Notes: generated by a model not told the origin, from the letters alone. Positions 54,745 through 58,900 are shown, numbered from the whole stretch's first letter. The stretch is 63,956 nucleotides of DNA, filler included, from Stramenopiles sp. TOSAG23-2 (GCA_900128395.1; 3 parts of 3 records of this genome joined end to end with filler, not necessarily neighbours in it), one strand, 5' to 3'. A program made the numbers and translations.

Positions 54745-55066
54745 TTTTTTTTTGGGATGTATCTAAGTAAATAAATATGGATTCGCAACAACAAAAAAAA
54801 ATGATGATTCTATCTTATATATAAACAAACTGTAGTACAAAGACACAAAATCCTACAAAAAAAAACAAAAACAGGAAATATATTCTATAAACTCTACAAT
54901 ATTATCAAATTAATATATATTTGATTGTTTTCACTCCACACGTCTCCACACACGTCTCCACACGTATGGATATATATATCCCCTTCCATCATGTTTTTCA
55001 TCATTTTTAACGTCTATATTATTTTGTACTGCTGTACATGCTAGTCTACAGTTGAAGAGTAGGGTT

Positions 55067-55280
55067 CAAGGGGAACGAAATCAAGGGGAACGAAATTGGA
55101 TCAAAATATGCCGATTATTGATATTATTAAGATACAAATATCCGATTTTATTTTGTAAAATGGTATATCTATTTAGTTATTTATTTTTAAAAATGAAATA
55201 ACAAAATCCTTTTTTGAAATTCATTTTTTGATAAGATTTCGTTCCCATTGATTTCGTTCCCATTGATTTCGGTCCCATTG
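55067..55280. repeat. Inverted arrays of a 15-bp unit (MITE/foldback-like)
   Basis: (CAAGGGGAACGAAAT)x2 at about 55067-55096 faces (ATTTCGTTCCCATTG)x~3 at about 55236-55280 across an AT-rich spacer. Confidence 0.75.
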
Positions 55281-55576
55281 GTTCCGATTTAGAATCTACC
55301 TAAGGATAGCCCATCTCCCCATCTCTCGTATTATTCACCTGCTATATTAGCTCATTATTTATGATGGGCTGTAGCAGGGAAGAAACGTAGGGAATTGAGT
55401 CCTGCTATATGCTATATATGCATAGACATACCATTGTATATATTTGATAGAATATATTTCAGTATTTAGCATATATAAAAAGTACGAAGTGGGGACTAGC
55501 GTTCCGCTATAACCGGTTTTATAGAAATTGAGCTGGTTTTACAGCGTTTTATAGATTTAGTGCTATTCCCATGTAT

Positions 55577-56825
55577 TTAAAGCATTAGCGTTGCACAGCA
55601 TTGCAACACCCCAACAAAATAATTAAGGAATTGATAATGCATAACTTTTTGAATGTGCATATCATCATCATATATCGTTTCTGGCACAGCTGGATTTACC
55701 TTCCGCCGTTTACGCACCGAATTAGCAGTTATTGATTCAGTTTTTATGTTTAAAAAATATTGAGTATCCAGTTTCTGACCCTGAATTAACAATAAATTAA
55801 AAGTTATAAAGGATAATTCATCTATTTTATCATTGTGGATGGTTAGTACACGGGGATTCTCTTTCTTCCATTTACTCTGGTTTACCATTCTAAATGGTCT
55901 ATCATTGTAAATATGCATATCGATCTTAGGAATAGAACCTGATGATAACCCATAGTCGTCTAATCCAATACTTAATTCTGCTTTATACTTCTTCATGAAC
56001 TTATCCATCTCCGTGATAGTTTCAAACAGCACTGGCGCCATAGAAAAATGAAGATGGTACGACATCTTACCTATATCCTTCCCGTGCGCACTCAGGACAG
56101 CCATCATCTCAGGGTATTTGTTGAATGCTTCTAATAATTTTTTAAAAACTACATTTAAAGTCTCTTCCCATACGATATTCTCCTTTATGTCATCACCATC
56201 GATATCCAAATAAAATCTACAAGATTTATCGCCACCAGAATTAATGTGATGTTTGTAAATGTTCGTACACATGTTTATCTCCTTGTAGATGATTGTACAT
56301 AGCTACTGGATCACCCACATAATAATGTTTTGCTCCATGATTTGGATAGGTATCAATAGCCCATAAGTTCGTATATTTTAAATTTATATCATATGGACTA
56401 TTTGTTGACTGTATTGTCCGTGGCTTCTTCGTATATTTTTGACTCAATGGGTATGTTTCACCTTTACCATACATGTCCCCCGCTAGTATGACACTCTGTT
56501 TAAAACGATTACATAATTTTATGTAGTCGGTTTTACCACTGGTTCCATCAGATATTTTATCTAACCAATAGAGCGGGTTGCGCTGGTCCGATTTATTCTC
56601 CAAACAGGTTGTTATTAAATCTTTAAAAGATACAAAATCAAGCGGGACTGGGTATAATTTGATAAATGCCAATCTAGCTTTTATAAAGTCACGTTCATCA
56701 CATTCTTGTAACGCTGAGATTGATTTTTCTAGGTTAACATCATTTTCATATACGATGGCATCATTTATATTTTTGTTTATTATGTCAAATATTTTATTAT
56801 TTTCATTTTCTAGCATTTTATTCAT
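55577..56825 (-). pseudogene. AEP primase-polymerase (PrimPol / NCLDV-herpes primase clade) split by a +1 frameshift near 56241-56272, C-terminally truncated
   Basis: The upstream ORF ends with HVYEH. The overlapping downstream ORF has CRFYLDID (motif I DxD), KMSYHLHF (motif II SxH) and IDMHIYNDRPFRMVNQSK (motif III). No C-terminal Zn finger or helicase seen. Confidence 0.8.
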
Positions 56826-56835
56826 TTTTATATAA

Positions 56836-57708
56836 CTAATTTGGGAATATATATAGTATCAAAAAAACGATGTGTTCCGGTTTACACCCTTTAATTATTA
56901 ATGTATCGTATTTTTCTAATATTGTTTTTATTGCTTGATTAGCACCTATATTCGATGATATCGATACAATATTATCATTACTAAACCCTTTACTTATTAA
57001 TGTATCGTATTTTTCTAATATTGTTTTTATTGCTTGATTAGCACCTATATTCGATGATATCGATACAATATTATCATTACTAAACCCTTTACTTATTAAT
57101 GTATCGTATTTTTCTAATATTGTTTTTATTGCTTGATTAGCACCTATATTCGATGATATCGATACAATATTATCATTACTAAACCCTTTACTTATTAATG
57201 TATCGTATTTTTCTAATATTGTTTTTATTGCTTGATTAGCACCTATATTCGATGATATCGATACAATATTATCATTACTAAACCCCTTACTTATTAAATT
57301 TTGCCAATGATCAACAAGTGCTCGTGTAGTAGCTGCCCCAAAACGACTTATTTGTTTCTTACTTAGTTCTTGATCCATTAAAGATTGTATCACATCTTTT
57401 ATATCATATCTACAATGTATTTGTCCACTAGAATTAACATCACATAAACTCTTTTTATTTGATCTATTTAAAAAGTGCTTATATCGTTTGACTGACGCTG
57501 TTGTATCTGTAATTACTCCTAGACTATTATACAGCATGCGTTTAAACCCTGTGTCTAAATTATTCTTCCATTTTTTGTTTAGTTTTATATTGTCTAAAAT
57601 ATCATTGTTATGACCAAGTCTGTTATTATTATTTTGTATGACTTCTTCCCTCCTAGATTCTCGGACATAACTAGTGTGTGATTCAAATTGTTGCCTTTGT
57701 AAATCCAT
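56836..57708 (-). CDS. TALE-like repeat protein: four 33-aa repeats with NI at positions 12-13
   Basis: Repeat FSNDNIVSISSNIGANQAIKTILEKYDTLISKG aligns to the TALE consensus LTPEQVVAIASNIGGKQALETVQRLLPVLCQAHG at V7, I9, S11, N12, I13, G14, Q17, A18, T21, L29 and the terminal G. Confidence 0.82.
   Translation of the reverse strand: MDLQRQQFESHTSYVRESRREEVIQNNNNRLGHNNDILDNIKLNKKWKNNLDTGFKRMLYNSLGVITDTTASVKRYKHFLNRSNKKSLCDVNSSGQIHCRYDIKDVIQSLMDQELSKKQISRFGAATTRALVDHWQNLISKGFSNDNIVSISSNIGANQAIKTILEKYDTLISKGFSNDNIVSISSNIGANQAIKTILEKYDTLISKGFSNDNIVSISSNIGANQAIKTILEKYDTLISKGFSNDNIVSISSNIGANQAIKTILEKYDTLIIKGCKPEHIVFLILYIFPN
56887..57282 (-). repeat. 4 x 99-bp near-identical coding tandem repeat
   Basis: ATGTATCGTATTTTTC recurs with exact 99-nt period (56901, 57000, 57099, 57198). 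Confidence 0.97.
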
Positions 57709-58113
57709 GTGTATTTGAACAGTAATGTATTTCAGAGTGTCTAAGTTGGTGAATATAATACATCTGTTGTTGTGGTTATTTGTAGGTTGTAAATATGAAT
57801 GTAAATATATATATAGATAATAATATAAAAAGACTGGAATACTAATAATTACGAATTGTATAATAAATTATTATTAAGAATAACCACATCGTCCTATACT
57901 AATACTAATATGATTTTAAGTTACAAACGTAAATCACGGTGAGTCAAATTAAGTGAGAGAGAGAGCGTGCATGGGGGCATGGGGTGTGGGGGTGTGTGTG
58001 TGTCGTGAGTCGACTCATTTCAATAACATTAAATACTATTATTATTAGTTTTAAAATGAATATCTGTAAGACTCGAGCGGTATTAATAGCTCCCCAGGCT
58101 CCCAACGTGGTGA

Positions 58114-58264
58114 CCAAATAAATAAAACATCGTAATACCATTACAATTCTATGTAGTGTATATACCTCAATAGCAGGTGAATACTGTGGCCAAATAAATA
58201 AAACATCGTAATACCATTACAATGCTATGTAGTGTATATATACCTCTATAGCAGGTAAATACAA
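58114..58264. repeat. Direct tandem repeat, 2 x ~76 bp
   Basis: CCAAATAAATAAAACATCGTAATACCATTACAAT..TAGCAGGT.AATAC occurs twice. Confidence 0.9.
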
Positions 58265-58290
58265 TGGATTATTTTTTGTAAACGCTTTTC

Positions 58291-58578
58291 TAACCCTAAC
58301 ACTAACTATATCAAAATGATATGAATCAGTCTAATAAATAGGGAGATATATACGATTTAGTATATTAAATACTGTACTATAACCCTGTACTATAACCCTA
58401 ACGCTAACTAGATCAAAATGATATGAATCAGTAAATAGGGAGATATATATGATTTAGTATATCAAATACTATACTATAACCCTGTACTATAACCCTAACA
58501 CTAACTATATCAAAATGATATGAATCAGTCTAATAAATAGGGAGATAAATACGATTTAGTATATCAAATACTATACTA
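58291..58578. repeat. Tandem repeat, 3 x ~100 bp, each starting with telomere-like TAACCCTAAC
   Basis: Units start at about 58291, 58393 and 58490: TAACCCTAAC.CTAACTA.ATCAAAATGATATGAATCAGT..AAATAGGGAGAT. Confidence 0.9.
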
Positions 58579-58900
58579 ATATGAAGAATTCTCTCTGAAA
58601 TAATTTGTTTTTGCGAATCCCAACGGGCGTATTTGTTTTTGAAAGAGGAATAGCATGGACGTAGGCCTGGTTATTGTGAGATTTGAAGCAACAAAATATA
58701 TACATTGCAACCCTTCATCAATATGTATATGTATATTCCATCCTTTCCATCCTTTCGATTCATACAAAGGATAGTGTTATAATTATATAAAGGAAAAAGT
58801 AATCCAATATATGTTTTTCTATTAAATTTTTTTATTAATTTCTTGTGAATTTCTTGTTATTTTTTTTTTAAACGACATTCATTTTTTTTAATCATTCATC

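Follow-up and report, generated by a model that had tools for sequence, protein, structure and literature searches.

The stretch of DNA analysed here (63,956 nucleotides, filler included, from Stramenopiles sp. TOSAG23-2; hereafter the window, whose positions are used throughout) carries a block of three open reading frames (ORFs A, B, and C) between a methyltransferase gene and a protein kinase gene. ORF A encodes a transcription activator-like effector (TALE)-like protein, and ORFs B and C are parts of one broken gene, probably for a primase-polymerase of the archaeo-eukaryotic primase (AEP) type. The layout is as follows:

53842-54744, minus strand: methyltransferase ORF, a flanking host gene (class I; Pfam Methyltransf_31, E 2e-11; host-like codon usage)
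56272-55577, minus strand: ORF C, catalytic part of the primase, 231 amino acids (aa)
56825-56241, minus strand: ORF B, N-terminal part of the primase, 194 aa
56825-56823, minus strand: start codon of ORF B, ATG
56835-56826, minus strand: 10-nt spacer, TTATATAAAA, from the ORF A stop to the ORF B ATG
56838-56836, minus strand: stop codon of ORF A, TAG
57708-56836, minus strand: ORF A, TALE-like, 290 aa
58901-61138, plus strand: Ser/Thr protein kinase ORF, a flanking host gene (Pfam Pkinase, E 4e-52; host-like codon usage)

Both the shared orientation of the ORFs between the two host genes and the short gap between the TALE-like stop and the primase start had been pointed out in a preliminary description of this locus, and both are borne out by direct reading and by the ORF list. 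The remaining gaps between adjacent long ORFs of the window, read from the same list, measure about 110 to 3,660 nt, mostly 200 to 900 nt, and at 10 nt the spacing from A to B is far tighter than any of them. A 31-nt GT..AG "intron" spanning the ORF A stop codon was considered and rejected: splicing would meet a stop after five codons.

Judged from its matches, ORF A is a genuine TALE-like protein, and we regard this call, which the preliminary description had made as well, as strong. When ORF A was compared with PDB sequences by phmmer, BurrH of Mycetohabitans (4cj9) was matched in 10 gapless stretches, each with an i-E of 1e-17 to 1e-22, and Xanthomonas PthXo1/AvrBs3 was matched more weakly, in stretches of 1e-11 to 1e-15. 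A tblastn search of 72,556 plasmid records returned seven, all of them Mycetohabitans TAL-repeat genes with 34 to 40% identity, and in a BLASTP alignment to one Mycetohabitans Btl protein (36 to 40% identity, gapless) the degenerate region and the truncated last repeat aligned as well. The NCBIfam AvrBs3 domain was matched with E 2e-20, while the score against Pfam TAL_effector (PF03377), 26.3 bits, falls just under the cut-off of 28. On these comparisons, the repeats of ORF A are nearest to those of Mycetohabitans BurrH/Btl. The protein, encoded on the minus strand, is built up as follows:

Residues 1 to ~90: family-specific N-terminal region, unrelated to Btl
Residues ~93-142: about 1.5 degenerate repeat units (BLASTP alignment to Btl)
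Residues 143-274: four identical 33-aa repeats, each with NI at positions 12/13 (repeat table)
After residue 274: truncated last (fifth) repeat and a short tail (repeat table)
56886-57297, minus strand: 99-nt tandem array coding for the 33-aa repeats (TRF, 4.2 copies, 99% matches; self-BLAST)

ORF A appears intact at this locus, with four full NI repeats; at 99% identity in DNA, these speak for very recent turnover. The likeness to the Btl/Bat (BurrH) proteins, effectors of the fungal endosymbiont Mycetohabitans rhizoxinica, extends to the repeat length of 33 aa, the pattern GFS..DIV.I..N*GA.QA, the short regions flanking the repeats, and the presence of degenerate repeats before the array. 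Unlike Btl, however, which has some 20 repeats or more, ORF A has 4.5; it lies on a eukaryotic contig, uses AT-rich codons, starts with about 90 residues of unrelated sequence, and adjoins an AEP gene, and its repeats are mutually identical, whereas those of Btl are described as diverse in the available part of PMC11261895. The Xanthomonas TAL effectors and Ralstonia RipTALs belong to the same repeat family by sequence and share N12 and a specificity residue at position 13, but their repeats are 34 to 35 aa long, the phmmer match is weaker, and neither a type III signal nor an activation domain is evident in ORF A, nor are extended N- or C-terminal regions. The TALE-likes of Legionella and of marine origin (MOrTL) share the 33-aa repeat with ORF A, a likeness by description and not by sequence, and are attributed to protist-associated bacteria or unknown marine organisms in the accessible portions of PMC12482156 and PMC11261895.

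ORF A is not alone. Word-indexed searches of a collection of 5.8 billion proteins yielded only four relatives, and a further one, P0013, was added by cluster look-up. Three of these (P0001-P0003) are of similar length to ORF A, are 50 to 67% identical to it, and lie on contigs of 823 to 1,564 bp; P0011 is a EukProt gene model of 617 aa with 66% identity and represents a second TALE-like paralogue or an orthologue. The N-terminal region of ORF A is common to the family, with 57 to 68% identity across five members. Against Pfam TAL_effector, P0011 scores 42.3 and P0013 44.6 bits, both above the cut-off, and P0011 already carried that label in precomputed data. P0002 also ends shortly past its truncated last repeat, as does P0003, if less clearly. 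Two of these proteins have peculiarities of their own. Residues 1 to 297 of P0011 form an Ala/Arg/Gly/Val-rich region, fused to the TALE-like part by the gene model, that has no Pfam or PDB match; by eye, it contains a helix-turn-helix-looking stretch, and it may stem from an adjacent gene of an element or from an exon joined wrongly. In P0002, the N-terminal family motif is duplicated, with a strongly basic stretch resembling a nuclear localisation signal between the copies.

The repeats of the family were compared using 10 distinct full units from six members. Position 13 is occupied by I, K, D, or N in the full units and by G in one partial unit, and its entropy of 1.85 bits ranks second highest among the 33 repeat positions, while S11, N12, G14, and A15 are invariant across the full units. 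The resulting pairs, NI, NN, NK, ND, and NG, stand in the register of classical TALE repeats, in which they are canonical repeat-variable diresidues with base preferences laid down in the published TALE code. Because position 13 varies between invariant neighbours, the family shows what appears to be the signature of base-specific DNA recognition, although the window copy itself is monotonous (NI four times).

The second gene was presented in the preliminary description as one primase ORF. This holds for its probable identity but not for its structure, as two overlapping frames make it up, a +1 frameshift lies between them, and the final 28 codons derive from a dispersed repeat. Its parts are these:

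56244-56825, minus strand: N-terminal part, 194 codons, frame B (ORF list), with no Pfam or other known domain
55661-56239, minus strand: AEP catalytic core, frame C, with motifs I to III and the basic stretch RKRRKV (PPL4 match, ESM Atlas, C962R spacing, and tblastn with P0007 and P0016)
ORF C residues 20-27, minus strand: motif I, FYLDIDGD (sequence reading)
ORF C residues 71-76, minus strand: motif II, SYHLHF (sequence reading)
ORF C residues 116-122, minus strand: motif III, KIDMHIYNDRPFRM (KIDMHIY; sequence reading)
56240-56243, minus strand: +1 frameshift site, TAAT with an in-frame TAA, where P0006, P0009, and P0016 have two codons
55499-55660, minus strand: dispersed repeat replacing the primase 3' end and supplying the last 28 codons and the stop of ORF C

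The assignment to the AEP primase-polymerases is, in our view, probable. AEP motifs I (DxD), II (sxH), and III (hD) are present in order, and all three are kept in the relative P0016. The triad D23/D25, H73, and D118 of ORF C is spaced by 48 (D25 to H73) and 45 (H73 to D118) residues. This is similar in order and spacing to C962R of African swine fever virus (D97/D99-H157-D200, spaced by 58 and 43 residues, as given in the part of PMC10516667 that was available) and to giant-virus AEPs (Pfam PF23162). The Pfam prim-pol family PPL4 was matched over motifs I and II, below its cut-off, by both the window copy (E 0.0017, 18.7 bits) and P0016 (E 0.011). Among the nearest ESM Atlas clusters, 24 of 30 are AEP_C962R, mostly from Nucleocytoviricota, and the top score was 0.97, with 209 of 256 features shared. 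For the primase, PDB sequence and profile searches gave noise only, neither PHROGs nor NCBIfam contained a match, and among Pfam families there was no match to Herpes_UL52/PrimPol. A tblastn search of phages came back empty. With ORF C as the query, an exhaustive HMMER phmmer search of 1.84 billion representatives returned just three fragments and no PrimPol. Because of this outcome, we do not consider the primase an orthologue of cellular PrimPol, and the separation from that group on which the preliminary description depended can be maintained. Relatives of the 5' part are P0008 (99%), P0009 (78%), and P0016.

Even the intact, 472-aa P0016, encoded on a contig of 2,602 bp, is unlike the D5/C962R-type primase-helicases, as domain scans found no superfamily 3 (SF3) helicase, D5_N, or PriCT domain in it or in P0007. 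Nor do the flanks of the block hold any further coding sequence. The N-terminal domain of about 190 aa, which matches nothing known, likewise sets the gene apart from the C962R and PPL4 families. The stretch RKRRKV of ORF C (55688-55705, minus strand), a putative, classical-looking nuclear localisation signal, is also found in P0016. Finally, P0017, a 57-aa sequence from a 377-kb contig, falls in the same 90% cluster as P0009; it has no visible similarity to the primase and probably represents a clustering artefact.

The copy of the primase gene in the window is, as read from its sequence and its relatives, dead twice over. First, frames B and C are disconnected. In P0006, the frame crossing from B to C reads ...TSHCYSGGDK, and in P0009 and P0016 it reads ...TTHCHSGGDK. 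The frameshift site is not a homopolymer, and the EukProt gene model P0008, which is one internal residue off the window sequence, ends at the identical premature stop; the shift is therefore real and not an assembly error. Programmed +1 frameshifting was rejected as an explanation, as the three relatives named above have two ordinary codons at the site. Second, the 3' end has been lost. Over 415 residues, P0016 shares 73% identity with the read-through translation, and it runs about 85 residues past the window junction, continuing after PETIYND where the window switches after PETIYDDD. The sequence that takes over in the window recurs, at 87 to 96% protein identity, in unrelated sequence in at least six variants (P0004, P0005, and P0018-P0021) and at least seven short contigs; P0004 and P0005 match just residues 204 to 231 of ORF C (96%), inside unrelated upstream sequence. 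Since the switch at ~55660 leads into sequence that recurs elsewhere, the primase 3' end was evidently replaced by a dispersed repeat. This repeat holds a sub-repeat of about 30 nt (55516-55534 and 55546-55564), and some of its relatives carry a 25-residue insertion relative to the window. As the primase of the window is a pseudogene, the locus cannot now replicate itself.

The surroundings of the block are those of a eukaryotic genome. The window consists of densely packed long ORFs, mostly uninterrupted, that code for ordinary eukaryotic proteins, among them THO complex subunit 1, an EF-hand glycerol-3-phosphate dehydrogenase, kinases, phosphatases, a ubiquitin-conjugating enzyme, and the 40S ribosomal protein uS5, whose top PDB matches are all cytosolic ribosomes. 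Given these proteins, we take the window to be a nuclear contig, from a eukaryote whose DNA is AT-rich and poor in introns and whose proteins are rich in Asn. Scans of the window with Rfam and for tRNAs gave no matches. An assembly chimera, or contamination with bacterial or viral DNA, might come to mind, since TALE-like repeats have otherwise been described from bacteria only. We consider this very improbable: to either side, the block runs on without a break into eukaryotic genes, its G+C content of 0.28 to 0.33 fits that of the window (~31% throughout), the independent gene model P0008 has the identical premature stop with one residue different, and the identity to bacterial proteins is just 34 to 40%.

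The preliminary description had further emphasized that the block is bracketed by repeats, which are listed here:

55066-55096: 15-bp inverted array, left, 2.1 copies (TRF)
55235-55280: 15-bp inverted array, right, 3.1 copies (TRF)
58110-58262: 76-bp tandem repeat, 2.0 copies, upstream of the TALE-like gene (TRF)
58291-58578: 97-bp tandem repeat, 2.9 copies, upstream of the TALE-like gene (TRF)

The arrays are where they had been placed (the 97-bp repeat having been given as ~100 bp), but those on the right do not distinguish the block: other long-period, non-coding tandem repeats occur in the window at 28214, 30220, and 49085, so that bracketing by the 76- and 97-bp repeats is not distinctive, and the flanking tandem repeats were for this reason rejected as element termini. 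Short inverted matches between 55330-55475 and 58170-58570 were rejected as terminal repeats as well, not being collinear in inverted order. Each 97-bp unit contains the telomere-like words TAACCCTAAC and TATAACCCTG. The 15-bp arrays on the left are less ordinary. They have arms of 45 nt that are 87% complementary, with a spacer of 111 to 154 nt between them. Their core, GGGAACGAAAT, is present in five copies at 55066-55280 and in one elsewhere in the 64 kb with one mismatch (six matches versus 0.84 expected). As DNA, this stretch folds into a hairpin with z = -7.2, and none of 200 shuffles folded as well; the arrays could thus form a long hairpin or cruciform. They may act as a promoter element for the methyltransferase gene, belong to the repeat, or form an origin-like structure. 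Two more repeats were noted far from the block: a 19-bp unit present 24.5 times in non-coding DNA (7965-8430) and a 36-bp unit present 7.2 times (9402-9657) inside the ORF 8870-9844, which has 63% G+C at its second codon positions.

The reading that we favour, if only by a modest degree of confidence, is that the block represents what decay has left of a small replication cassette, foreign and virus- or plasmid-like, which came to lie between two host genes. The cassette would consist of two tightly packed genes, the first for a TALE-like DNA-binding protein and the second for a stand-alone AEP primase-polymerase. In intact copies, the AEP would prime and extend DNA on the element, and the TALE-like protein, made from a transcript shared with the AEP, would read a short DNA word set by its position-13 residues and thereby mark the origin of the element, control its copy number, or direct its destination. 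Intact versions of the cassette would persist elsewhere while the copy in the window decays. The analysis shows the homologies, the breaks, the 10-nt spacing, the small and diverged gene families, and the variation at position 13, whereas we infer the foreign or mobile origin, the cotranscription, and the functional coupling of the two proteins. That the TALE-like protein would bind the origin, control copy number, or act in targeting is suggested by the gene layout together with the variation in its RVD-type residues.

What is known of other copies bears on this. P0010 is 99% identical to the primase N terminus for 72 residues and then diverges, and among database proteins, pieces of the TALE-like gene, the primase gene, and the repeat next to it turn up in other sequence contexts. 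Both gene families are tiny, amounting to a few short public contigs and two EukProt gene models, and self-BLAST revealed no second copy of the block within the window. The two primase ORFs are atypical for the window, with a G+C content at third codon positions (GC3) of 0.27 and 0.36 and a codon-fit of 0.109 and -0.018, compared with a GC3 of 0.13 to 0.26 and a codon-fit of 0.18 to 0.46 for 17 host ORFs (0.38 to 0.46 for the immediate neighbours), values that are flattered for the host because the codon-fit model was trained on the same ORFs that it scored. Taken together, the atypical codons of the primase, P0010, and the diverged relatives of both genes argue for several copies or loci in the source organisms. 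Among the remaining ORFs of the window, the most atypical codons (GC3 0.31, codon-fit 0.053) are found in a 423-aa ORF at 28596-29867 (minus strand) without a Pfam match, which may be foreign or fast evolving.

Apart from the bias in the codon-fit values, a number of observations weigh against a foreign cassette. The codon usage of ORF A is host-like (GC3 0.18, codon-fit 0.221). The preliminary description had seen in the block the relic of a self-replicating element, and the atypical codons of the primase and the fragments in other contexts agree with this. The helicase, integrase, capsid, or polB gene that might have accompanied such an element, however, is missing from the block, its flanks, and the remaining window, and no other virus-like or transposon-like gene was found there either. 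Neither are there clear termini: the best inverted pair, 54779-54795 and 58604-58620 (17 nt, one mismatch), is near chance by our estimate and is without a target-site duplication. No relatives of ORF A or ORF C were found in IMG/VR, and no JGI metagenome relatives were found with the TALE-like alignment or with P0009. The adjacency of TALE-like and AEP genes is observed at this one locus, the relatives being known as protein fragments only. Four NI repeats would, by the TALE code, specify a mere A-tract, which is not discriminating at ~31% G+C. As to the primase, no AEP profile was matched at a curated threshold (the sole hit, PPL4, at 18.7, 16.9, and 16.0 bits, stays under its cut-off of 25), and AlphaFold2 produced unusable models, with a pLDDT of 32.3 from the single sequence and 30.9 from a five-row alignment.

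Some of these observations would fit more readily with lineage-specific host genes, that is, an old, domesticated acquisition in which the TALE-like protein is a host DNA-binding regulator, the primase is a dying paralogue, and nothing has recently been mobile. An intact ORF A with host-like codons is what one would expect in that case, as are the conserved N-terminal residues of the five TALE-like members, the occurrence of EukProt gene models in both families, the lack of transposition or packaging genes, and the lack of relatives of either family in the viral contigs searched. Yet a 10-nt gap is unlike host gene spacing, the primase does not share the host codon usage, its 5' part and the junction repeat have been copied in other contexts, and repeats that are 99% identical in DNA point to very recent turnover. 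All in all, we consider this explanation unlikely, though it carries real weight.

Alternatively, two unrelated transfers may have ended up side by side, the TALE-like gene coming from a Btl- or Legionella-type effector of an intracellular bacterium and the AEP gene from a giant virus, in which case their adjacency would be meaningless. The 10-nt spacing and the shared orientation would be hard to obtain by independent insertions, and the two families are equally sparse (EukProt, ENA, and Logan) and comparably diverged, with 50 to 68% identity for the TALE-like and 55 to 78% for the AEP proteins; moreover, the position of the ORF end after the truncated last repeat is seen again in P0002 and, less clearly, P0003. 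In favour of two transfers it can be said that endosymbiotic or intracellular bacteria are the owners of the nearest known TALE-likes, which are effectors (PMC12482156, in the part available), that the look-alikes of the AEP are giant-virus proteins, that codon usage differs between the two genes, and that the inspected stretch of the Mycetohabitans plasmid has no AEP gene next to its Btl genes. On balance, we rate such a double transfer as somewhat less likely again than domesticated host genes.

For the cassette that we prefer, a precedent in organization is provided by the archaeal plasmids of the pRN1 type, in which the gene for a small DNA-binding protein lies directly upstream of the gene for the prim-pol replicase and is cotranscribed with it. 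As in these modules, the gene for a putative sequence-specific binder immediately precedes that for an AEP replicase; unlike in pRN1, the binder belongs to another class and the host to another domain of life, and homology between the binders is not to be expected.

In the literature, TALE-likes are described from bacteria and otherwise from marine fragments of unknown source, as far as the available part of PMC11261895 goes, and the sources reported in the literature searched are Xanthomonas, Ralstonia, Mycetohabitans, Legionella, a Coxiella-like lineage, Mycoplasma fragments, and marine metagenome fragments. In full-text searches, no paper brought TALE-like proteins together with eukaryotes plus primases, and none with endogenous viral elements. 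The sole link of TAL-effector repeats to giant viruses or to the InterPro entry concerned bacterial Legionella proteins, according to the accessible portion of PMC12482156. A TALE-like protein encoded by a eukaryote was not encountered there either, the papers matched being, to judge by their titles and the openings of their abstracts, general TALE or genome-editing reviews. Hence, both a eukaryote-encoded TALE-like family and its pairing with an AEP, for which the preliminary description knew of no precedent, are undescribed in the literature searched.

In conclusion, a family of TALE-like proteins embedded in eukaryotic DNA and equipped with canonical specificity residues widens the known range of the TALE DNA-reading module and bears on the question of where the bacterial TALE-type effectors came from. 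The short and diverse 33-aa repeats of this family could also be of interest to protein engineers. That its gene is paired, head to tail, with one for an orphan primase-polymerase suggests that the TALE code has a natural role in replicating DNA or in targeting an element and not in host transcription. Conceivably, though we would call it doubtful at present, the intact pairs constitute a eukaryotic selfish replicon of a new kind, in which a programmable TALE-like protein serves as the origin- or target-finding factor for a stand-alone AEP. If so, the proteins of this family would be the first TALE-likes that are native to the DNA of eukaryotes, and inside protist or fungal hosts they may have exchanged genes with the bacterial TALE-like effectors.

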